A stretch of DNA of 64,000 nucleotides from Ilumatobacteraceae bacterium (GTDB lineage Bacteria; Actinomycetota; Acidimicrobiia; Acidimicrobiales; Ilumatobacteraceae). The first letter of the stretch is position 1, and each line of letters begins with the position of its first letter. Positions 6,888-50,538 of the stretch are shown one piece after another. The translations under genes and the position numbers were made by a program. The DNA lies in assembly GCA_039931555.1 (NCBI GenBank), contig JBDTRP010000116.1:45128-109127 (forward strand). The letters are read 5' to 3'. The notes under the pieces are model-generated. The model made no database searches and was not told where the DNA came from. It worked only from the letters and a program-made list of their open reading frames with translations.

Positions 6888-7691
6888 ATGGAATTCGATG
6901 GGCGTCACGTCATTGTCACCGGTGCTGCAAACGGGATCGGTCGTGCGCTGGCCAGGCGGTTCCACGCCGAGGGCGCCAGAGTCGTCGCGTCCGATGTCGA
7001 CGCGACGGGCTTGACCACGGTGGTCGAGCAACTCAACGCCATCCGTCAGCGCAGCGCGGTCGCGCTGGCCGCCGACGTGGGCACCGAGGCAGGCAACCAC
7101 TTCCTCGTCGCTGCCGCCGAGGATGTGTTCGGGCCGATCGACCTGTTCTTCGCCAATGCCGGGGTCGCAGTCGGCACCGACCTCAGCACCGCCGAGACCG
7201 AGTGGCAGACCGCGTTCGACATCAACGTGCATGCCCATCGCTGGGCCGCGAAGTACCTTCTGCCCGGTTGGCTGGCCCGCGGCGAGGGCTACTTCTGCTC
7301 CACGGCCTCAGCAGCAGGCCTGCTGAGTCAGATCGGGTCGGCGCCCTACTCGTTGACCAAACATGCCGCAGTTGCCTTCGCCGAGTGGATGAGCATCACC
7401 TACGGCGATCAAGGCGTCCGGGTGAGTTGCCTGTGTCCGCAAGGGGTCAACACCAACATGCTCAATGCGGGTCCGATCACGTCGAACGGGGCGGGCAACG
7501 TCGTGCGCGCATCCGGCGTCGTGCTGGAGCCCGACGACGTTGCCGAGGTTGCCATCGGGATCATCCGCGCCGAGACGTTCCTGATCTTGCCGCACCCCGA
7601 GGTGCTCACGTATCTCCAACGCAAGACCGGCGATTACGACCGGTGGCTCGCCGGCATGCGCAAGTTGCAGGCCCGGATCGTCGGCGGCTGA
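6888..7691 (+). CDS. SDR family oxidoreductase
   Basis: VIVTGAANGIGRALARRF Rossmann motif (TGxxxGxG). 267 aa. Confidence 0.9.
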   Translation: MEFDGRHVIVTGAANGIGRALARRFHAEGARVVASDVDATGLTTVVEQLNAIRQRSAVALAADVGTEAGNHFLVAAAEDVFGPIDLFFANAGVAVGTDLSTAETEWQTAFDINVHAHRWAAKYLLPGWLARGEGYFCSTASAAGLLSQIGSAPYSLTKHAAVAFAEWMSITYGDQGVRVSCLCPQGVNTNMLNAGPITSNGAGNVVRASGVVLEPDDVAEVAIGIIRAETFLILPHPEVLTYLQRKTGDYDRWLAGMRKLQARIVGG

Positions 7692-36390: not shown

Positions 36391-38028
36391 TCACACGAAC
36401 GACAATGACACGGAGTCGCCGATCGCCACAGCATCGGCCGCCTGGCGGGCGTGATAGCTGCTGCGCGTCAACGGGCTGGCCTCGACATGACCGATGCCGA
36501 GCGACTCGCCGATCCGCTTCCACTCCACGAACTCGGCTGGCTCGACCCATCGCGCCACGGGGAGATGGTGCGTCGTCGGGCGTAGGTACTGGCCGATCGT
36601 GACGATGTCGACACCGACGCCGGCCAAGTCGACCAAGCAACCCACGATCTCCTCGTGCGTCTCTCCCATCCCGACGATCAATCCCGACTTCGTCGCCAGC
36701 CCCGCTGCCTTGGCCCGCGACAGGACCGACAGGCTGCGTGCGTACCCCGCAGAGGGCCGCACCGCTCGCTGGAGGCGGGCGACGGTCTCGATGTTGTGGT
36801 TCAGCACATCGGGTCGCACGGCGAACAGCAAGGCGAGCGAATCGGCGTCGCCCTTCGCGTCGGAGATCAACGTCTCGATCCGTGTATCCGGGCAGCGCAG
36901 GCGGATGGCGTCGACGCACCGGGCAACATGGGCCAGGCCACCGTCGGGTAGATCGTCACGCGCCACCATCGTCAGCACCGCGTGAGCCAGGCCCATGGTG
37001 GCCACTGCGTCGGCGACCCGAGCGGGCTCGTCGTCGGCGGGTGGCAGTGGCTTGCTGGTGTCGACGAGGCAGAAGCCGCACGCCCTCGTGCACCGTTCGC
37101 CGAGGACCAGAAACGTCGCGGTGCCATCGGCCCAGCAATCGCTGAGGTTGGGGCAGCCCGCTTCTTCGCACACGGTCACCAGACCGAGATTGCGCACGGT
37201 CTTCTTGAGCGCGATCACCTCGGGCCCATGCACCACCTTGGGCCGTAGCCATTCAGGCTTGCGAGTTGCGATCTCCAGGCCATCGGCGACGCCGACCTGC
37301 GCCAACCGCCTGACGACGGCGCCGGGGCCGTCGCCTCGGGAGAACGCCGACAGGTCGTCGGGCCGATGCTTCCAAGCGACGTCCTGCCGCTCCATCGACC
37401 CGCGACCCCACACGTCGGCGGCGTGGCGGGCCACGACCTCGGCCACCACCTCGAGCGTGGTCTCGACGCCCTCTTCGGCCAGCGAGGTGACCGGCTTGTC
37501 GGGAATGCCGCAGGGCACGATGTAGTCGCGCATGTACCGCATGTCGGGCGACACGTTGAGCGCGAAGCCGTGCATCGTGCGACCATGCGCCAGCCGCACG
37601 CCGATGGCACAGATCTTGCGCGGATTCGGCCCGCTGACCCCTACCCACACGCCTGGATACTCGTCGAAGCAACCGACATCGTCGACGCCGAGCTCGGTGA
37701 GGCTGGCGACGATCACCCGTTGAATCGCACACACGTGATCGGCGGCGCCCATGGTGTTCGCCACGTTGACGATCGGGTAGCCGACCAGCTGCCCCGGGCC
37801 GTGATACGTCACATCGCCGCCGCGCTTCACCGAGACCAGTTCAGCGCCGACCGATGCCGGCTCGACCAACACGTTGACGGCGAGGTCGGCCCGCGGCCCG
37901 TGAGTGAACACGTGTGGATGTTCGAGCAGCAGCAGGTGATCGCCAACGCCGTACTGGAGCAGCGCCTGCTGCACCGCGAGCGCCTCGCGGTAGGGAACCC
38001 TGCCGAGCCAGCGAACCCGCAGTGTCAT
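36391..38028 (-). CDS. lipB/lipA: Fused octanoyltransferase LipB / lipoyl synthase LipA (single 545-aa reading frame)
   Basis: The N-terminal half has LipB motifs (KRGGDVTYHGPGQLVGYP, KICAIGVR, VPCGI). The C-terminal half has LipA motifs (CEEAGCPNLSDCW and the radical SAM CTRACGFC). There is no stop between them in the ORF track frame. ATG 38028 lies 1 nt after the E2 stop. Confidence 0.85.
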   Translation of the reverse strand: MTLRVRWLGRVPYREALAVQQALLQYGVGDHLLLLEHPHVFTHGPRADLAVNVLVEPASVGAELVSVKRGGDVTYHGPGQLVGYPIVNVANTMGAADHVCAIQRVIVASLTELGVDDVGCFDEYPGVWVGVSGPNPRKICAIGVRLAHGRTMHGFALNVSPDMRYMRDYIVPCGIPDKPVTSLAEEGVETTLEVVAEVVARHAADVWGRGSMERQDVAWKHRPDDLSAFSRGDGPGAVVRRLAQVGVADGLEIATRKPEWLRPKVVHGPEVIALKKTVRNLGLVTVCEEAGCPNLSDCWADGTATFLVLGERCTRACGFCLVDTSKPLPPADDEPARVADAVATMGLAHAVLTMVARDDLPDGGLAHVARCVDAIRLRCPDTRIETLISDAKGDADSLALLFAVRPDVLNHNIETVARLQRAVRPSAGYARSLSVLSRAKAAGLATKSGLIVGMGETHEEIVGCLVDLAGVGVDIVTIGQYLRPTTHHLPVARWVEPAEFVEWKRIGESLGIGHVEASPLTRSSYHARQAADAVAIGDSVSLSFV

Positions 38029-38029
38029 G

Positions 38030-39565
38030 TCACAGCTCGGCGGACCAGTCGCGTGTCTCGAGCGCCTGCTTGATCTTGACCAGGAAGCCGGCGGCATACG
38101 CGCCGTCGAATGCCCGGTGGTCCCAGGCCATCGCCAGGTTGCCGACGGGGTGGATGGCGATGCCCTCGCCGCCGTCGGCAGCGCGCACGACCACCGGCTT
38201 GCGGGTGATCGCATCGGTCGACAGGATCGCCACCTGCGGCTGGTTGATGATCGGCATGGTCAACACGCTGCCGGCCGAGCCGTTGTTGGAGATGGTGAAC
38301 GTGCCACCGCTGATCTCATCTGGGCTGAGGTGGCGACTGCGCGCCCGCCCTGCGAGGTCGTTGATCTCGCGAGCGATCGCCCGGAGACGCTTCGTCTCGG
38401 CCGCCCTGACCACGGGAACCAGCAGTCCCTGGTAATCGAGGTCGACCGCAATGCCGATGTCAACGAAGTTGTGCACGACGAGATCGTCGTCGGAGACACT
38501 GGCGTTGAGATGCGGGAACTCCTCGAGTGCCTCGACCACGGCGCGGGTGATGAACGGGAGGTACGTGAGCCCGAAGCCCTCGCTCGACTTCCATTCATCC
38601 TTGACCTGATTGCGGGTGATGTCGACGTTGGCGAAGTCGACCTCGACCACGCTGAAGGCATGCGGGCTGACGCCCTTGCTCATCACCATGTGGCTGCCGG
38701 TGAGCTTGCGGATCTTCGACAGCCTGACCGTCGAGTCGCGCTCTCCAGGCGTGACGCTGGGCGCGGGTGCGGCGGCCACCGGAGCGGCAGGTGCCGCAAG
38801 TGCCGCAGCCGGTGCCACAGGTGCTGCGGCGGGAGCTGGAGGTGCTGCGGCTGGTGCCGCGTCGGGTGCCTGCGTGGCAACCCGGTCGATGTGGTCCAAC
38901 ACATCGTCACGCGTGATCCGCCCGCCGGGGCCGGTGCCCTTGACCAGGTCGACATCGATGTTGTGCTCGGCGACGAGTCGACGCACGACCGGCGACAGCA
39001 GACGATTGTCGGAGGGCTCGTCGGCGGCCTCCGCTGCGGCGGGTTCGGGCGCTACAGGCGCGGGTGCTACGGCGGCCGGCTGCGGCGCGGGCGGCACCGC
39101 TGGTTCGCCAGCAGGTGGGCCCGCGGCTTCGGGTGCGGGGGTCTTCGGCGGTAGCGCAGGCGCGGCCGGTGACTCGGCGGCCGGTGCCTCGGCGGCCGGT
39201 GACTCCGCTGCCGGTGCCTCCGCTGCCGGTGCCTCGGCGGCCGGTGCCTCCGCTGCCGGTGCCTCGGCGGCCGGTGCCTCCGCTGCGGGTTCCGCCTCGG
39301 GCGGTGCCGCCGCAGGTGCAGCAGCGCCGGCGGCCTCGCCGACCACGGCGATCACGGCGCCGACCGGCACGGTGTCGCCCTCCTGCACGCGGATCTCGGT
39401 GACCGTGCCGGTGATCGGCGACGGTACCTCCGTGTCGACCTTGTCGGTGCTGACTTCGAACAACGGCTCGTCGGCCGACACGCTGTCGCCGACCTTCTTG
39501 AACCATCGGGTGATCGTGCCTTCGGTGACGGTCTCACCGAGTTGCGGCAACGTGACATCGGCCAT
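38030..39565 (-). CDS. 2-oxo acid dehydrogenase E2 component (dihydrolipoyllysine-residue acyltransferase, SucB/DlaT type)
   Basis: It has one lipoyl domain (...LFEVSTDKVDTEVPSP...), an Ala/Pro/Glu linker, a PSBD (LSPVVRRLVAEHNIDVDLVKGTGPGGRITRDDV) and a catalytic domain (...AWDHRAFDGAYAAGFL). Confidence 0.95.
   Translation of the reverse strand: MADVTLPQLGETVTEGTITRWFKKVGDSVSADEPLFEVSTDKVDTEVPSPITGTVTEIRVQEGDTVPVGAVIAVVGEAAGAAAPAAAPPEAEPAAEAPAAEAPAAEAPAAEAPAAEAPAAESPAAEAPAAESPAAPALPPKTPAPEAAGPPAGEPAVPPAPQPAAVAPAPVAPEPAAAEAADEPSDNRLLSPVVRRLVAEHNIDVDLVKGTGPGGRITRDDVLDHIDRVATQAPDAAPAAAPPAPAAAPVAPAAALAAPAAPVAAAPAPSVTPGERDSTVRLSKIRKLTGSHMVMSKGVSPHAFSVVEVDFANVDITRNQVKDEWKSSEGFGLTYLPFITRAVVEALEEFPHLNASVSDDDLVVHNFVDIGIAVDLDYQGLLVPVVRAAETKRLRAIAREINDLAGRARSRHLSPDEISGGTFTISNNGSAGSVLTMPIINQPQVAILSTDAITRKPVVVRAADGGEGIAIHPVGNLAMAWDHRAFDGAYAAGFLVKIKQALETRDWSAEL
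39164..39293. repeat. Tandem 15-nt coding repeat (about 8-9 copies; encodes the (A-P-A-A-E)n linker of E2)
   Basis: GCCGGTGCCTCGGCG / GCCGGTGCCTCCGCT alternate on the plus strand. The protein reads AEAPAAEAPAAEAPAAE.... Confidence 0.85.
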
Positions 39566-39591: not shown

Positions 39592-41010
39592 TCAGGCGTT
39601 CAGGCTGCGGCCCGTGAGCGACAATACGGTTTCGCCGAACAACTCCGTCAGGCTCGGGTGCGGCTGGATGAACTCGGCGACCTCGGCGGCGGTGGCTTCC
39701 CAGTTGACGGCAAGGTACCCACCGCTGAGTTGTTCGGTGACCCAGGGCCCCACCATGTGCACTCCGAGGATCTGGCCGGCGGTTCCGTCGGCCTGCTTCT
39801 TGGCGATGATCTTGACCAGCCCGTCGAGCTCACCCAGGATCTGGGCACGGCTGTTGGCGCGGAACTGGTGCTTGGCCACGACGACATCGAAACCGGCCTC
39901 GCGTGCGGCCTCCTCGCTCGGCCCGGCAAAGGCGACCTCGGGATGGCAGTAGATGGCCCACGGCACACGGTCGTACGCCACCGGATTGGGGTGCTCGCCG
40001 AGGATGTCCTTGGTGACGAGGATTGCCTCCGCATATCCGACGTGCGCCAACTGCGGCGTGTTGATGATGTCGCCGATCGCGTACACCCCGGGCTCACCGG
40101 TACGGCAGTACTCGTCGACCTCGATGAACCCACGATCGCTGACCTTCACAGCCGTACCGGTGAGACCGAGCTTGTCGGCGAACGGCCGGCGACCGACGCT
40201 GACCACAACGACGTCGACTTCGAGGTTCTCGACTTCTCCCCCATCCCCAGTAGCACAGTGCACCGTGGTACCACCGCTGGCAGTCGGTGTGTGACCCAGC
40301 ACCTTGACGCCGGTACGGATGTCGATGCTCTTCTTCTTGAAGCTGCGCACAACGACGTTGGCCACATCGCTGTCGAGCCCGGGAAGGATCTTCGGCAGCC
40401 CCTCGAGGATGGTCACCTGCGACCCGAGATCGGCGAACGTGCTGGCGAACTCGCAACCGATCGCGCCACCACCGATCACTGCAACGCGGTTCGGCACGTA
40501 GTCGAGCATCAATACTTCGTCACTGGTCATCACCGGGCCCGACGGCTCGAAGCCGGGGATGGTGCGAGGCACCGAACCGGCGGCCAGCACCACGCTGCTG
40601 CCGCGAATCGTCGAGACGCCCTCGGGGCCTGTCACGGTGACCGTGCGGTCGGCGCCGAGCGTGCCGATGCCGTCGAGGATCGTGATCTTCTTCGACTTCA
40701 TGAAGCCCGTCAGGCTCTTGACGATGCCATCGACGATCTTCTGCTTTCGCGCCTGCGCCGTGACGAAATTCACGACAGGCGCACTCGACTCGATGCCGAA
40801 CTCCGCAGCGTGAGCCACGTGACGTTGCACCGCGGCCGTCTCCAGAAATGCCTTCGCCGGGATGCAACCTCGGTTGAGGCACGTGCCTCCGATGTCGGCC
40901 ATCTCGACGAGGGCGACGTTGAGGCCGGCGGAGGTCGCATACAGCGCTGCGCCGTATCCGCCGGGTCCACCGCCGATCACGACGAGATCGAATTCGGTTG
41001 CGGGCTCCAT
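39592..41010 (-). CDS. lpd: Dihydrolipoyl dehydrogenase (E3)
   Basis: The inner ATG 41010 gives MEPATEFDLVVIGGGPGGYGAALYA (FAD GxGxxG). The redox-active disulfide GGTCLNRGCIPAK and the C-terminal HPSLTE motif are also present. Confidence 0.95.
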   Translation of the reverse strand: MEPATEFDLVVIGGGPGGYGAALYATSAGLNVALVEMADIGGTCLNRGCIPAKAFLETAAVQRHVAHAAEFGIESSAPVVNFVTAQARKQKIVDGIVKSLTGFMKSKKITILDGIGTLGADRTVTVTGPEGVSTIRGSSVVLAAGSVPRTIPGFEPSGPVMTSDEVLMLDYVPNRVAVIGGGAIGCEFASTFADLGSQVTILEGLPKILPGLDSDVANVVVRSFKKKSIDIRTGVKVLGHTPTASGGTTVHCATGDGGEVENLEVDVVVVSVGRRPFADKLGLTGTAVKVSDRGFIEVDEYCRTGEPGVYAIGDIINTPQLAHVGYAEAILVTKDILGEHPNPVAYDRVPWAIYCHPEVAFAGPSEEAAREAGFDVVVAKHQFRANSRAQILGELDGLVKIIAKKQADGTAGQILGVHMVGPWVTEQLSGGYLAVNWEATAAEVAEFIQPHPSLTELFGETVLSLTGRSLNA

Positions 41011-41066
41011 GTTGGCTCCGTGACGGTCGGTGAGTCCTGCCTGGACGTTGAGATCAAATTCCGGGT

Positions 41067-41501
41067 TTACGGTAGCGCCTCGCCGACCTGAGCGAGCACC
41101 CACCGCAGCTGCACGTCGGCGCGGTGGAAGATGAGCTGTCGAGAGGCTCCCGGCATGCCTGTCGTGTCGAACGTCAACGAGCAGTCGGTCTGGGCGACAG
41201 CAATTCCCGCACATGTCGACGAGCCCACGGCGACGACCTTTCCCGGGGCGACCAGCGTGAAGCCGCCGAGGCCGTCGGGGTCGTCAACACCGCCGACGCG
41301 CACGACCGCGATCAGGTGCGAGCCACTGGCCGACGACGACACCAACTCGACGGTCGCGTCGCCCGCCTTGCCGGGCTCGCCTGCGTCGAGCAGCTTCGCC
41401 GTCTGCTCCTGGCCGCCGACCCGAAGCAGCTGAATGCCACCCGCCAGCAAGATGACGAGGCCGCATGCGATGGCAAGCAACAACAGGGTCCTGGTGCGCA
41501 T
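41067..41501 (-). CDS. Membrane-anchored hypothetical protein
   Basis: ORF 41067..41501 with an N-terminal TM/signal segment, MRTRTLLLLAIACGLVILLAGG. Confidence 0.5.
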   Translation of the reverse strand: MRTRTLLLLAIACGLVILLAGGIQLLRVGGQEQTAKLLDAGEPGKAGDATVELVSSSASGSHLIAVVRVGGVDDPDGLGGFTLVAPGKVVAVGSSTCAGIAVAQTDCSLTFDTTGMPGASRQLIFHRADVQLRWVLAQVGEALP

Positions 41502-41515
41502 GGACTTGCCAGGCT

Positions 41516-42097
41516 ATGACCCGTAGCGATCGCATCGTGCGCCGACTGTTGCTCTGTCTCGTCGGCGTTGCCCTGTTGGCCGCATGCGGCGACAACGCCG
41601 CGTACTCCAGCGAGGGGACAACACCGGCGGTCGGCGCCGCGGTGGGTGCCCCGAGCACGACGCCGGTCGCGTCCAATCGAACCGCAGTACCCGAATCGCT
41701 GGCTTTCTCGGCGCCTCGAGTCGGCGGTGGCACGATCAACCTGGCCGACTTCGCCGGCAAGCCGGTGTTGCTGTGGTTCTGGGCGCCGACTTGAACGACT
41801 TGCAACCATGAAGCCCCTTCGGTCGAAGCGGCGAGCCAGAGGTGGGCAGGGAAGGTGCAGTTCGTCGGCGTTGCGTGGTACGGCGACGATTCGTCGTTCC
41901 AGGGTTTCGTCGACAAGTACCGCTTGACCTTCCCCCAGATCAGCGATGATCCGGGTGACGTGTTCAGTCGCTTCGATGTGCCCTCTCAACCGGCCATGGC
42001 CATCATCGACGGCACCGGAACGGTGAAGGTCTCGTTGGGTGCGGTCGAGGAGTCAACGCTCGATGCCGCACTCACGGCAGCGGTCGCCGCCGGTTAG
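41516..42097 (+). CDS. DsbE/TlpA-like thioredoxin-fold lipoprotein with an in-frame TGA at the first CxxC position (candidate selenocysteine UxxC protein, or alternatively a nonsense pseudogene)
   Basis: ORFs 41465..41794 and 41855..42097 are in the same frame ((41855-41516)/3 is an integer). The read-through translation is ...GKPVLLWFWAPT-[TGA 41792-41794]-TTCNHEAPSVEAASQRWAGKVQFVGVAWYGDDSSFQGFVDKYRLTFPQISDD...FDVPSQPAMAIID. Redoxin-family blocks lie on both sides of the TGA. The N-terminus MTRSDRIVRRLLLCLVGVALLAACG carries a lipobox. GC3 bias continues after the TGA. Confidence 0.6.
41813..41832 (+). promoter_or_regulatory. SECIS-like hairpin downstream of the in-frame TGA
   Basis: GCCCCUUC-GGUC-GAAGCGGC gives 7 bp plus one C/C mismatch and a GGUC tetraloop whose first G is 29 nt from the U of UGA. 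This fits what I remember of bacterial SECIS rules (a G-containing apical loop roughly 16-37 nt from the UGA). Confidence 0.35.
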
Positions 42098-42392: not shown

Positions 42393-44219
42393 TCAGCTGG
42401 TCGCGCACTCGAAGACGCGCTCGGTGTAGTCCGCATCAGCCACGTTGTACCAGTTCTTGCCCTCGAGGCAATCGGGATGTGACAGCTCGTACGGCAGTTC
42501 GAACTCGAAGATGGTGCCGTCGTCGACGTACTTCTGGAAGCACGGCGCAGCAGCGGTGCCGAAGGCGATGAAGTCTTCGTCACTCATGCTGTACACCGCA
42601 CCCGACCAGTACTGCTCGCCGACACCACACTCCGGGAACCGGTAGTACGGCGCCACGAACGTCGGGTCGATCGAACCGTCGCCCAATCCGGCCGACACGC
42701 ACGCCGAGTATCCGGCGTAGTCGGTCTGGTCGAAGCAGGCGTCGAACGCACTGCTGTCGGTGCCGTTGGGATCATCGGAGATGCCGGTGGTGTCGCCGCC
42801 CAGACCGAAGATCCCCGACGTCGAGAACGACTCGGACACCTTCTTGACACCGTCGATGATGTCGGTCAGTTCGCCCTTGTCGAGGGCCGACAGCAAGCTC
42901 ACGTAGACGTCGAAATAGGTACCGATCGGGCTGACATACCACGCGCCACCGACCTTCTGCACGGTGATGCCCACCGGCTTCATATCGGAAAACGCATCCT
43001 CGATCGTCTTGATCAACGACTTCACATCGCCGGTCTCGTCGAGCCCCAACACGCCGAGCGCGTCGTCGATCGACCCGGCGACCTGGCACGAGTCTGCGGT
43101 GGTGTCACCGGAGGTGAACACGACGCAGCCGTCCTTGTTCTCGACGGTCACGTCGGTGCCGTTGGCGGAGGCCTTCAGGTTGAACCCGTCGATCGCGACC
43201 GTACGCCGGTCTCCGCTGCCGCTCACCGTGTACTTGATGTCGGAGAACGCGATCTTGGCGTCGAGGTCGTCGATGCCACCTTGGGCGCCGTCGATGAACA
43301 TCGGCGCGTAACGCTGCAGTGCCTCGGCCTCGTTGGGGTTGAGCGCGGCGATCAGCGATTCCACATCGAGGTCGTCGACCGCGTCGAAGATCGCCTGCAC
43401 GGCCCCCTCGGGCGTGTCGGCCCCGCGGGCAACGACTGGAGTCTCGGGGATGTCGTGGCCACCCTGGCGGGCGTTCTCGGCGATGGAATAGAACGCGCTG
43501 AGGTACCACCGTCCGTCGCGCTTCACGGTCGCCAACTTCCAGTCGATCGCGCTGTCCTGCGGGTCGGAGCCGAGCTCTGGGCGATCGCTCCCGAACGCCT
43601 CGTCGATCAACAAGTTGCCGATCGGCACCGCAGCGCCGTCGACCGAGGCAGTCCCAGTCGCAGTGATGCGGATGTCGGAGATCTCGGCGACGTTGGTGTC
43701 GGTCGGATCGACATGAACGTCGCCGAAGTTGATGTCGAGCCCGCCGACCTTCTGCAGCGTTGCAGTGTCGTCGACGATCTCCAGGCGCTTGAGGTTGTCG
43801 ACGATGTCGATCAACGGCTGGCGCATCATGTCGCGTTCGCCGGGCAACAACAGGTCGACGACACCCAGTGCGTCCTCCGCAGCCAAGGCGTCCATCAACC
43901 GGGTGCCGACCTCGGTAGGGCTCGCCGCACCACCGTCGTTGCCGGCAACGATCTTGCTGACAGCGAAGCCACCGGCGCCGAGGAGCGCGACCACGGCGAC
44001 CAGTCCGCCGACAACCTTGCCTCGGCTGCGCTTCCCGACGGCGCCGGCGGGCACGACGGTCGCGGTCGGCTCGCCCTCATGCGCGGCGAATGGGGGCGCA
44101 GCCTGAAGCGGCATCAGCGGCGGCCCGATCGGCATCGGCGGCGGCAACGTCGGGCCGCTCGGCGGCGCGATTTGCGGCGTGGGTGGTTCGAACGCTTTGC
44201 CGTCCTCGTTGGTGTCCAC
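42393..44219 (-). CDS. Membrane-anchored extracytoplasmic hypothetical protein (Pro-rich N-terminus, Cys-rich C-terminus)
   Basis: ORF 42393..44267. GTG 44219 is preceded by AAGGGA. It has one TM segment (VVGGLVAVVALLGAGGFAV), and 8 Cys lie in the last approximately 130 residues. Confidence 0.7.
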   Translation of the reverse strand: MDTNEDGKAFEPPTPQIAPPSGPTLPPPMPIGPPLMPLQAAPPFAAHEGEPTATVVPAGAVGKRSRGKVVGGLVAVVALLGAGGFAVSKIVAGNDGGAASPTEVGTRLMDALAAEDALGVVDLLLPGERDMMRQPLIDIVDNLKRLEIVDDTATLQKVGGLDINFGDVHVDPTDTNVAEISDIRITATGTASVDGAAVPIGNLLIDEAFGSDRPELGSDPQDSAIDWKLATVKRDGRWYLSAFYSIAENARQGGHDIPETPVVARGADTPEGAVQAIFDAVDDLDVESLIAALNPNEAEALQRYAPMFIDGAQGGIDDLDAKIAFSDIKYTVSGSGDRRTVAIDGFNLKASANGTDVTVENKDGCVVFTSGDTTADSCQVAGSIDDALGVLGLDETGDVKSLIKTIEDAFSDMKPVGITVQKVGGAWYVSPIGTYFDVYVSLLSALDKGELTDIIDGVKKVSESFSTSGIFGLGGDTTGISDDPNGTDSSAFDACFDQTDYAGYSACVSAGLGDGSIDPTFVAPYYRFPECGVGEQYWSGAVYSMSDEDFIAFGTAAAPCFQKYVDDGTIFEFELPYELSHPDCLEGKNWYNVADADYTERVFECATS

Positions 44220-44323
44220 GGAAGGTCCCTTTCGCCGCAATCTGGTCTCTAACGGTATCGGCTGCAAGCGGGGCGACCTGAGTACTTGTCACCGAGCTGA
44301 TCCGGGCGACCTACCCTGTGCAC

Positions 44324-46387: not shown

Positions 46388-46846
46388 ATGGCGAGCACAT
46401 GGTTATCGGCGAGCGAGATGCGAGCGTGGCGCAACTTCATCGAGTCGGTCAGCACGATGACTGCTGCATTGGAGGGTGATCTGGTGCCGTTCGGGTTGAC
46501 CTTGGGCGACTACGAAGTACTGGTCAGACTGTCGGAAGCCGAGAACCACCGTCTGCGAATGTGCGACCTGGCGACGTCGCTGCAGCTGTCGCCCAGCGGC
46601 CTGACCCGACGCCTCGACGGGCTCGTCAGCTCCGGCTTGGTCGAACGTGTCGCCAGCCCATCGGATCGACGGGTGATGTTCGCAGCCCTGACTGCTGCCG
46701 GTCACGTCAAGCTGGTCGAGGCCGCGCCCGACCACGTCGCCAGCGTGCGCAACCGGTTCCTCAAGGATCTGACGAACGAGCAGGTGCGTTCCCTCGGCGA
46801 CATCTTCGAGATCGTGCGGGCCAACCTCACGGCTTGCCCGCAATGA
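46388..46846 (+). CDS. MarR family transcriptional regulator
   Basis: Winged-helix region ...LGDYEVLVRLSEAENHRLRMCDLATSLQLSPSGLTRRLDGLVSSGLVERVASPSDRR. Confidence 0.9.
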   Translation: MASTWLSASEMRAWRNFIESVSTMTAALEGDLVPFGLTLGDYEVLVRLSEAENHRLRMCDLATSLQLSPSGLTRRLDGLVSSGLVERVASPSDRRVMFAALTAAGHVKLVEAAPDHVASVRNRFLKDLTNEQVRSLGDIFEIVRANLTACPQ

Positions 46847-47994
46847 CCACGCTTCCCGCCGGCTTCCGCGCCTATGTTGCGAACATCGGGATCAAGGACT
46901 CGACCGACGATTTCGTCGTCGTCGCCACAGATTCGCCGTGCCCGACGGTCGGCGTGTTCACGACGAGCAGCTTCGCCGGACCCAGTGTTGTCGTCAGCCG
47001 CCAACACGTCTCGTCGCAAACTGCTCAGGCCGTGGTCGTGATCTCCAAGAACGCCAATGTCGCGACCGGGGGCGTCGGCCTGGCCAACGCTCGCGAGGTC
47101 GTTGCCGGTGTCGCCACGGCGCTCGGCTGCACCGCCGGCGATGTGCTGATCGCCTCGACCGGCGTGATCGGCCGCCAGTACCCGATGGATCGCGTGCGCG
47201 CCGGCCTGACGGCCATCCCTGCACCACTTCCGTCGGTCGATGCCGGCCTCGTGGCGACCGGCATCATGACGACGGACACCGTCTCGAAGGTGGCCAGCAC
47301 GTCGGTGGGCGCCGCGAGCATCGTCGGCGTCGCCAAGGGTGTCGGCATGATCGAGCCCAACATGGCCACCCTGATCACCTTGATGTTCACCGACGCCCGC
47401 CTGAACGCCGAGGACCTCGACCCCATCTTCCGACGCGTCATGGATCGCACGTTCAACTGCGTCTCGATCGACACCGACACCTCGACCAGCGACACGGCGA
47501 TCCTGATGGCCGGCGGCGAGGCAGGGCCGGTCGATCTCGGCGAGTTCGAGCGGGGCTTGTACGAGGTCGCAGCGTCGTTGACGAAGCAGGTCGCACGCGA
47601 CGGCGAGGGTGCCGAGAAGTTGATCGAGGTGGTCGTCGAGGGTGCGCACACGCCAGAACAGGCCAAGCGCGTCGCCAAGGCGATCGTCAACTCGCCGCTC
47701 GTCAAGACGGCCGTGCACGGCGCCGACCCGAACTGGGGTCGGGTGGCCATGGCGATCGGCAAGTCGACGACTGCGGACGAGGTCGACCAGGCGCAGGTCG
47801 TCATCCGCTTCGGTGATCAAGAGGTCTACCCGTCGTCGGTCGACGAGGCAGGGCTGCACGCACTCGCCGAGTACATGCGAGGTGATGAGGTACGGATCAC
47901 CGCCGTCCTCGCCGCCGGCGATTCATCGGCCACGGTGTGGGGCTGCGACCTGACCGACGGCTACATCCGCATCAACGCCGATTACACGACCTGA
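46843..47994 (+). CDS. argJ: ArgJ family glutamate N-acetyltransferase / ornithine acetyltransferase
   Basis: MTTLPAGFRAYVANIGIK..., the autoprocessing site context ...PNMATLITLMFTDA, and the C-terminal ...GYIRINADYTT. The ATG overlaps the marR stop as ATGA. Confidence 0.8.
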   Translation: MTTLPAGFRAYVANIGIKDSTDDFVVVATDSPCPTVGVFTTSSFAGPSVVVSRQHVSSQTAQAVVVISKNANVATGGVGLANAREVVAGVATALGCTAGDVLIASTGVIGRQYPMDRVRAGLTAIPAPLPSVDAGLVATGIMTTDTVSKVASTSVGAASIVGVAKGVGMIEPNMATLITLMFTDARLNAEDLDPIFRRVMDRTFNCVSIDTDTSTSDTAILMAGGEAGPVDLGEFERGLYEVAASLTKQVARDGEGAEKLIEVVVEGAHTPEQAKRVAKAIVNSPLVKTAVHGADPNWGRVAMAIGKSTTADEVDQAQVVIRFGDQEVYPSSVDEAGLHALAEYMRGDEVRITAVLAAGDSSATVWGCDLTDGYIRINADYTT

Positions 47995-50076: not shown

Positions 50077-50538
50077 ATGGAAATCATCCGACACGACGAT
50101 GGCTCGCTGACCGTTCCCGTAACCGCGCCGCGCCATCACGACGACGACGACGCTGACGAGGCCGTCGACACCGGGCCCACCACGATGGTCCTGCACCCGG
50201 GCGAGGGCGGCTACACCGAGGCGTTGGCCGAATGGGACGTGCAGCAGAACCCCGATCGCGGGGAAGCCGTCTCAACTGCGTCCGGCCGCGAGCAGGCCAT
50301 GGCGGTGGTCCACGCGGTGGCTGAGGATCCGGAGCACGTTGCCGAAGCCGTCGACTCGCTGGAAGACGCCGGTGCCAGCGCGGACGCGCTGCGGCACGTG
50401 CTGGTCGGGGGGACTCCGTCGATCCAAGCGTTCGCACATGAGGTGGCCGATGCCGAAGGCGGCGAGGAACTGCCGCACCACAAGGCAACCAAGATCATCG
50501 GCCAGGTGCTGGCCGAGATCGACACACACCCGCAGTAA
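50077..50538 (+). CDS. Acidic hypothetical protein
   Basis: The inner ATG 50077 gives MEIIRHDDGSLTVP.... The protein is highly acidic and matches no family I recognise. Confidence 0.45.
   Translation: MEIIRHDDGSLTVPVTAPRHHDDDDADEAVDTGPTTMVLHPGEGGYTEALAEWDVQQNPDRGEAVSTASGREQAMAVVHAVAEDPEHVAEAVDSLEDAGASADALRHVLVGGTPSIQAFAHEVADAEGGEELPHHKATKIIGQVLAEIDTHPQ

Follow-up and report, generated by a model that had tools for sequence, protein, structure and literature searches.

We identified a candidate selenoprotein gene at positions 41516 to 42097 of a 64,000-nucleotide stretch of contig JBDTRP010000116.1 from an Ilumatobacteraceae bacterium, a stretch that we refer to in its entirety as the window. 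The gene encodes a predicted redoxin lipoprotein whose reading frame is interrupted by one TGA, and this TGA is almost certainly a genuine selenocysteine (Sec) codon in a membrane-anchored thiol-disulfide redox enzyme because both the codon and an RNA hairpin behind it are conserved in approximately 160 related actinobacterial contigs. These sequence comparisons strongly support the recoding of the UGA at 41792-41794 as selenocysteine rather than its use as a stop. We also consider it highly probable that the full pathway consists of SelB-dependent Sec insertion directed by a selenocysteine insertion sequence (SECIS), export and lipidation of the product, and thiol-disulfide exchange through a selenenylsulfide.

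A redoxin frame with a single in-frame TGA

Two open reading frames (ORFs), 41465..41794 and 41855..42097, lie in one frame, and the TGA at 41792-41794 is the sole stop between them, as an initial annotation of this DNA had stated. From the likely start codon, ATG 41516, the read-through peptide contains ...KPVLLWFWAPT-(TGA)-TTCNHEAPSVEAAS... and GC content at third codon positions is 0.79 before the TGA and 0.77 after it, which bears out the earlier claim that coding bias is maintained past the codon. When Cys was substituted for the TGA, the translation matched the Pfam families AhpC-TSA (PF00578; 5e-17, 62.4 bits against a cutoff of 26) and Redoxin (PF08534; 2e-14, 53.9 bits against a cutoff of 26.6), and both matches span the codon. 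The best matches in the PDB were the Mycobacterium tuberculosis proteins DsbF (3IOS, 5e-24) and MPT53/DsbE (1LU4, 1e-22), followed by ResA. DsbF and DsbE align through the active site such that U93 falls on their nucleophilic Cys and C96 on their resolving Cys, in agreement with the initial placement of the TGA on the nucleophilic Cys of a TlpA/ResA/DsbE-type block. The features of the gene are as follows.

41516..42097, plus strand: complete coding sequence of the predicted selenoprotein, a DsbE/DsbF-like redoxin lipoprotein, in a single frame of 193 codons including Sec93, with stop TAG at 42095-42097
41516..41587, plus strand: signal peptide with lipobox (MTRSDRIVRRLLLCLVGVALLAAC), read from the sequence; L-A-A-C, with Cys24 predicted to be lipidated
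41789..41791, plus strand: codon -1, ACT (Thr), which puts a U directly 5' of the UGA
41792..41794, plus strand: putative Sec-UGA codon (U93), aligned in homologs with the first, nucleophilic Cys of CxxC
41801..41803, plus strand: TGC codon of the resolving Cys (C96) of U-T-T-C, the Cys at +3 being invariant
41813..41832, plus strand: SECIS-like hairpin with 5' arm 41813-41820, loop GGUC 41821-41824 and 3' arm 41825-41832

In 167 of 168 orthologs, C96 is the sole Cys 3' of the U and the only Cys that accompanies U in the mature protein. The N-terminus was read by motif and consists of a positively charged n-region, a hydrophobic h-region and the L-A-A-C lipobox, with Cys24 counted from ATG 41516. 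The LLAAC lipobox reported earlier is therefore present, and a lipobox-like motif was also found in 148 of the 159 orthologs with complete N-termini. These motifs predict an extracytoplasmic location by way of a signal peptide or membrane anchor.

Conservation of the TGA and its downstream hairpin

Related loci were collected by alignment-based scans of species-representative genomes (80 loci) and metagenome contigs (80 loci), 160 in all, in addition to 7 earlier contigs. The 160 loci are the nearest relatives of the window gene, down to approximately 45% identity, and not an unbiased sample of the wider family. Nearly all of the genome matches are titled Ilumatobacteraceae, Ilumatobacter, Acidimicrobiaceae, Acidimicrobiia or unclassified Actinomycetota metagenome-assembled genomes (MAGs), and the closest relatives are Ilumatobacteraceae MAGs, consistent with the actinobacterial host proposed at the outset. 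Among 170 instances of the active-site motif, the first-Cys column was TGA in 168, TTA in one and TGC in one, the last being a second, paralogous gene in locus L086. The initial annotation had allowed for relatives with TGC or TGT in this column and no conserved hairpin; we find the opposite, with TGA nearly throughout and a hairpin that is conserved through compensatory changes. Further, the frame downstream of the TGA stays open for 96-125 codons in 165 of the 165 copies with complete downstream sequence, and at conserved residues 3' of the TGA nearly all variation is confined to the third codon position (G25, 0/0/1.54 bits; A27, 0/0/1.53 bits; also P47). Any possible restart codon comes after codons +3 (Cys), +4 (Asn), +6 (Glu) and +7 (Ala), which are invariant or nearly so as amino acids, and the stretch from +3 to +7 is kept at the protein level in the orthologs.

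Searches of public proteins gave a matching picture. Classic CxxC homologs (P0003-P0007) were recovered, with Cys in the U93 column as in DsbF and DsbE, and closer to the query were two truncated gene calls, P0010, of 109 aa and ending ...WFWAPT, and P0009, of 125 aa and beginning M-ICNREAP. The contigs of both have a TGA at the same codon. The public gene calls P0001 and P0002 show Leu or Trp at the Sec column, and no full-length U-containing entry was found among the top 120 protein matches.

These data bear on three alternatives. The initial annotation had itself raised a nonsense pseudogene, in which a TGC/TGT-to-TGA mutation inactivated a DsbE-like gene. Such a pseudogene would agree with the fact that the gene is intact apart from one in-frame stop and is split by public callers into P0010 and P0009. 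It is nevertheless extremely improbable: among 170 instances from 80 species genomes and upwards of 80 metagenome contigs, 168 share this TGA, and the 165 complete copies are without secondary stops or frameshifts and carry a signature of purifying selection downstream. Alternatively, the gene could be split and yield a lipoprotein fragment of 92 residues plus a C-terminal fragment with a start of its own, as the GTG directly after the TGA in the L002-L007 lineage, where the gene caller began P0009, might suggest. We consider this very unlikely, since most orthologs are without a start codon near the TGA, the first in-frame start in the window (GTG 41855) is 20 codons downstream, codons +1 to +20 with the invariant Cys, Asn, Glu and Ala are kept as protein, and a C-terminal fragment would lack the export signal and half of the thioredoxin fold. 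Because the frames stay open, variation is confined to third positions and conserved codons precede any restart, both the pseudogene and the split gene are excluded on comparative grounds. Finally, a sequencing or assembly error at the TGA base has a vanishingly small probability. Odd single variants do occur elsewhere (the TTA in locus L008 and, in locus L171, a 1-nt deletion within a run of C), but none is specific to the window, and the identical codon is present in independent assemblies from many projects and technologies.

The second element is the hairpin GCCCCUUC-GGUC-GAAGCGGC, which begins 19 nt after the TGA as first described and places its loop 26 nt after the UGA. Its stem consists, in order, of 4 bp, a C.C mismatch and 3 bp, and its minimum free energy (MFE) is -7.5 kcal/mol over 20 nt and -8.9 kcal/mol over 26 nt. 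The published model of bacterial SECIS (bSECIS) elements calls for a loop of 3-9 nt, an upper stem of 4-16 bp, a spacing of 16-37 nt, an MFE of -7.5 kcal/mol or lower and a G in the first two loop positions (PMC13188914 Fig. 2). The window hairpin has all of these properties, with an energy that is borderline, so the earlier statement that its distance from the UGA is allowed for bacterial SECIS elements also holds.

A gap-free alignment of 139 unique sequences covering the TGA and the following 60 nt, with the 8-pair stem in columns 22-29 and 34-41, revealed how closely the hairpin is maintained. The core UCGGUCGA is invariant in all 139 sequences, synonymous sites included, and third-position entropy is zero at Ser +9 (TCG) and Val +10 (GTC) despite the six and four codons available. 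Stem cells are paired in 88.9% of cases versus 33-61% in a control in which the 3' arm was slid 1-3 columns along. Cells in which both sides have changed number 69 versus 19.5 in shuffles (0 of 500 reach 69), a contrast weakened by the fact that the shuffle control ignores relatedness among the sequences, which the slid control does not. Pair 27-36 is C-G in 99 sequences, U-A in 37 and U-G in 3 and is broken in none, while pair 24-39 exists as six pair types and pair 26-37 has two flips to G-C. RNAalifold independently recovered the same top 4 bp and GGUC loop. The Cys-form relatives are without the hairpin element, and the Cys form of locus L169 has an identical EAPSVEA peptide yet folds with only -3.3 kcal/mol. 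At the sequence level, conservation of the TGA (168/170), covariation and synonymous-site conservation place the hairpin beyond chance.

The bases flanking the UGA are constrained as well. The base 5' of the Sec-UGA is U in 123 of the 123 unique contexts that offer a synonymous choice, the preceding codon in the orthologs being always ACT where it is Thr and otherwise GGT (Gly), TAT (Tyr) or TTT (Phe); ACT makes up 6% of Thr codons among the window genes. At the base 3' of the UGA, 120 of 141 orthologous loci have A.

Several observations weigh against a Sec codon with a dedicated hairpin. The folding energy of the hairpin is of ordinary stability relative to shuffles (z = 0.46 at 67% GC), and of 27 different 20-nt versions of the hairpin, approximately one quarter are less stable than the -7.5 kcal/mol cutoff. 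Pair 25-38 is mismatched, usually as C.C or C.A, in 117 of 139 sequences. Rfam gave no match at gathering thresholds in the whole window, and a permissive search of 41700-41920 returned only a meaningless snoRNA (E = 6). Locus L008, a 760-bp contig, has TTA (Leu) at the Sec column (nucleotides 410-412) in front of a perfect hairpin, and P0002, a JGI gene call that does not come from the collected loci, has Trp there. The closest relative of the window gene among the fetched loci has 88% amino-acid identity, and none is identical. Lastly, no selA, selB, selD or tRNA-Sec was found in the 64-kb window. Because the folding energy alone is unremarkable, the case for the hairpin rests on comparative evidence, in which coordinated non-synonymous substitutions (at +8 from Pro to Ala or Ser, at +12 from Ala to Glu) make pair 25-38 a G-C or U-A in some sequences. 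The TTA of L008 and the Trp of P0002 may each reflect a recent mutation, an error or an artefact of gene calling, and TTA is a very rare codon in this GC range.

Some of these observations would also fit read-through without Sec, in which a near-cognate tRNA (Trp or Cys) or some other suppression would place W or C at position 93 and the hairpin would act as a generic stimulator. The Trp in P0002 points in this direction, as do the status of TGG and TTA as single-base neighbours of TGA and the fact that no Sec machinery gene was found within the window. However, the element fits the SelB-type bSECIS criteria and shares its GGUC loop with E. coli fdhF, the genus encodes SelA, SelB and SelD (PMC5029168), and the codon coincides exactly with the column of the catalytic Cys, a position at which Trp would eliminate activity. 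In addition, the W of P0002 may be a TGA that was translated as Trp by the gene caller, and the L008 contig with TTA retains its perfect hairpin. We thus regard non-Sec read-through as improbable and favor Sec insertion at this codon.

Probable Sec decoding and the predicted enzyme

The hairpin of E. coli fdhF (NC_000913.3) offers a direct comparison. In both genes a hairpin within the coding region lies just 3' of the UGA (codon 140 in fdhF) and has the apical tetraloop GGUC, a resemblance that the initial annotation had pointed out and that we confirmed on the fdhF sequence. Both also have a 4-bp upper stem followed by an irregularity. This irregularity is a C.C or C.A 1x1 mismatch in the window hairpin and its orthologs, some of which have it paired, whereas in the fdhF SECIS it is a bulged U. 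The two further differ in the spacing from UGA to loop, which is 18 nt in fdhF versus 26 nt in the window gene, and in the context of the codon, which is C-UGA-C in fdhF versus U-UGA-A here.

Given these features, SelB carrying Sec-tRNA(Sec) would be positioned by the mRNA hairpin at 41813-41832, with its GGUC loop 26 nt downstream of the UGA, and translation would continue for 100 more codons to the TAG at 42095. From its N-terminal motifs, the product would be exported through the Sec translocon, and a lipid on its Cys24 would anchor it to the outside of the cytoplasmic membrane. By analogy with its family, it would then act as a thioredoxin-fold thiol-disulfide oxidoreductase of the DsbE/DsbF/ResA type with the redox center U93-T-T-C96, in which the selenolate attacks a substrate disulfide (or sulfenate) to give a mixed selenenylsulfide that Cys96 resolves to form an intramolecular Se-S bond. 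Some membrane electron-transfer partner would recycle the enzyme, which could run either as a reductase/isomerase or as an oxidase.

Turning to the decoding machinery, ARAGORN detected no tRNA genes in the window, and none of the window's 20 largest genes has a SelA, SelB or SelD domain. ARAGORN also found no tRNA-Sec in 1.4 Mb of related loci, as expected because all of these loci represent the same neighborhood. In the tables of Peng et al. 2016 (PMC5029168), both Ilumatobacter coccineus and I. nonamiensis are SelD+, SelA+ and SelB+ (Table S1), and their counts of known selenoproteins are 15 and 10, respectively, compared with 1-2 for neighboring actinobacterial entries (Table S2). The Secmarker supplements do not mention Ilumatobacter.

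Independent support for Sec decoding in the relatives comes from loci L148 (~3052, minus strand) and L150 (~5265, minus strand), each of which has a second TGA-interrupted gene approximately 2 kb from the redoxin. This gene reads ...VVLLTPV-U-PLC-TRTV... and has a hairpin after the UGA. Its matches to the PrdB/GrdB selenoprotein B family extend over the TGA, both with Pfam GRDB and with TIGR04483 (2e-35, which does not reach the equivalog cutoff), and the gene probably encodes another selenoprotein of these organisms.

We found no further selenoprotein genes in the window. A candidate at 50274 (minus strand) was rejected as being without a redox motif. A second TCGGUCGA hairpin of the UCGGUCGA type at 47834 (UCGUC-GGUC-GACGA, within 47830-47850), 20 nt after a TGA, was judged a coincidence because the real gene there, 46561..47994, is read in a different frame from that TGA (GC at third positions 0.79 vs 0.50). 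In the related loci, in-frame TGAs of other genes that are followed by a GGUC-type element proved to be only ordinary stops and terminators, and candidates in L056 and L055 were not selenoproteins but adjacent genes (E2 followed by lipB-lipA in one case and ArgJ in the other).

Protein family, neighborhood and significance

M. tuberculosis DsbF (Rv1677) and DsbE/MPT53 (Rv2878c) are, like the predicted window protein, actinobacterial extracytoplasmic thioredoxin-fold oxidoreductases. The proteins align over the whole redoxin domain and have in common the blocks WFWAPWC..C.(G/A)EAP, FVGVA and QPA. Residues C96, Q158, P159 and A160 are invariant in the ortholog alignment, and the QPA block, which we take to be the cis-Pro loop of the thioredoxin fold, aligns with the same block in DsbF and DsbE. 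The two M. tuberculosis proteins differ in having Cys at the nucleophilic position, a preceding Trp where the window protein has Thr, and no SECIS, and identity is only about 40%.

A 2026 review shows that UxxC thioredoxin-fold selenoproteins are already well catalogued (PMC13188914). Its table includes a 'Redoxin family protein' (PF08534; 'Prx-like 3' of GOS), a 'Thiol-disulfide isomerase-like' family (cd02966), a 'Prx-like thiol:disulfide oxidoreductase' (PF00578) and a 'UGC-containing TlpA family'. The redoxin selenoproteins of this table resemble the window protein in their PF00578/PF08534 domains, in a UxxC motif whose U occupies the column of the N-terminal Cys, and in a bSECIS directly downstream, a comparison made with the table entries (representative sequence, e.g., HEU0032618.1). 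The Acidimicrobiia clade may be one of these families or an addition to them. The window protein has the combination of PF08534 and UxxC that characterizes the 'Redoxin family protein' (GOS Prx-like 3). Another resemblance is to NCBIfam NF041054 ('ResA-like WAxxUGC motif-containing protein'), a ResA-like selenoprotein with a WAxxU... active-site block. This family differs in its UGC motif, where the window protein has UxxC, and in its model of approximately 354 positions, and the window protein scores 23 bits against the curated cutoff of 300 bits, which places it outside NF041054 by sequence. NF002854 (thiol-disulfide oxidoreductase ResA) likewise gave 59 bits against a cutoff of 170 bits, and no NCBIfam model reached its curated cutoff on the window protein. 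We conclude that this is a real UxxC selenoprotein lipoprotein of a kind already known, namely the Sec-containing thioredoxin-fold redoxins. The initial description of such an enzyme as uncommon in an actinobacterium was overstated, given the catalogued UxxC families (PMC13188914) and the 10-15 selenoproteins listed for Ilumatobacter.

The redoxin gene sits in a housekeeping block that runs from a lipB-lipA fusion (36391-38259) through a likely E2 gene, lpdA (39592-41214) and a 144-aa membrane protein to the redoxin, a 624-aa secreted protein and an Epimerase/DUF1731 gene. The conserved neighbor of the redoxin gene is the following.

41067..41501, minus strand: divergent 144-aa protein with an N-terminal membrane anchor and C-x9-C; no Pfam hit; GVDDPDG motif

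It was found in 103 of 135 upstream regions, always on the strand opposite to the redoxin, and 88 of 93 unique homologs have C-x(9-11)-C. It also adjoins Cys forms of the redoxin in loci L170 and L171. This 2-Cys membrane protein is the best candidate for a client, and possibly a partner, of the redoxin.

In one lineage the redoxin occurs as a tandem pair, a Cys form (WCxxC) with a Sec form (F-U-xxC) directly after it, at these coordinates.

L169: 309-902 and 954-~1730
L171: 6271-6861 and 6890-~7650
L086: ~1400-1950 and ~2100-2700

Locus L170 has one Cys form (APFCVIC) at the syntenic position. In a rough neighbor-joining tree, with Nocardioides- and Mycobacterium-type DsbE/F homologs as outgroups, the span covered by the Sec clade includes the Cys forms P0003-P0007. 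This suggests interconversion of Sec and Cys, and only suggests it because the tree has no support values. In L171, a 5x long-read contig, the CCCCC run of the Sec-form hairpin (~7345-7350) is short by one C and the frame is shifted, most likely a homopolymer assembly error rather than a real frameshift.

How selenoproteins work is unchanged by this finding; what it exposes is a gap in annotation. Public gene calls either split the gene (P0010, P0009) or place Leu or Trp where Sec would be (P0001, P0002). Because of such calls, together with the lack of an NCBIfam model that reaches its cutoff, a lineage-wide selenoprotein has been missed in hundreds of Acidimicrobiia MAGs. The gene would encode a Sec redoxin that is exported, anchored by a lipid and shared by genomes related to Ilumatobacteraceae. 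Ilumatobacter species in culture are regarded as aerobes, and so are Ilumatobacteraceae and related Acidimicrobiia; if so, a conserved selenoprotein in this group bears on why aerobes keep or lose selenocysteine. The 139-sequence alignment also provides unusually clean natural data on bacterial SECIS constraints, with its invariant loop, fixed spacing, covariation through non-synonymous changes and invariant U before the UGA.

More speculatively, these genes might constitute an uncatalogued selenoprotein family, a UxxC lipoprotein of the DsbE/DsbF type that is near-universal in Ilumatobacteraceae and related Acidimicrobiia, coupled to the divergent 2-Cys protein and decoded by a lineage-specific U-UGA-A context with an fdhF-like UCGGUCGA element at 26 nt. 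We consider this possible and rather unlikely. If it were true, oxic habitats would harbor a widespread exported selenoenzyme, at odds with the view that selenoproteins are seldom retained by aerobes (PMC13188914).

Finally, two neighboring genes deserve mention in their own right. Directly downstream of the selenoprotein gene, 42393-44267 (minus strand) encodes the 624-aa protein, which is predicted to be secreted, is Cys-rich, has no Pfam match and is not conserved at that position in more distant loci. On the other side of the block, 36391-38259 (minus strand) and positions 1040-2725 of L171 each consist of one ORF with a catalytic domain of lipoyl(octanoyl) transferase (LplA-B_cat) and the lipoyl synthase domains LIAS_N and Radical_SAM, which looks like a LipB-LipA fusion that is kept in a related MAG.

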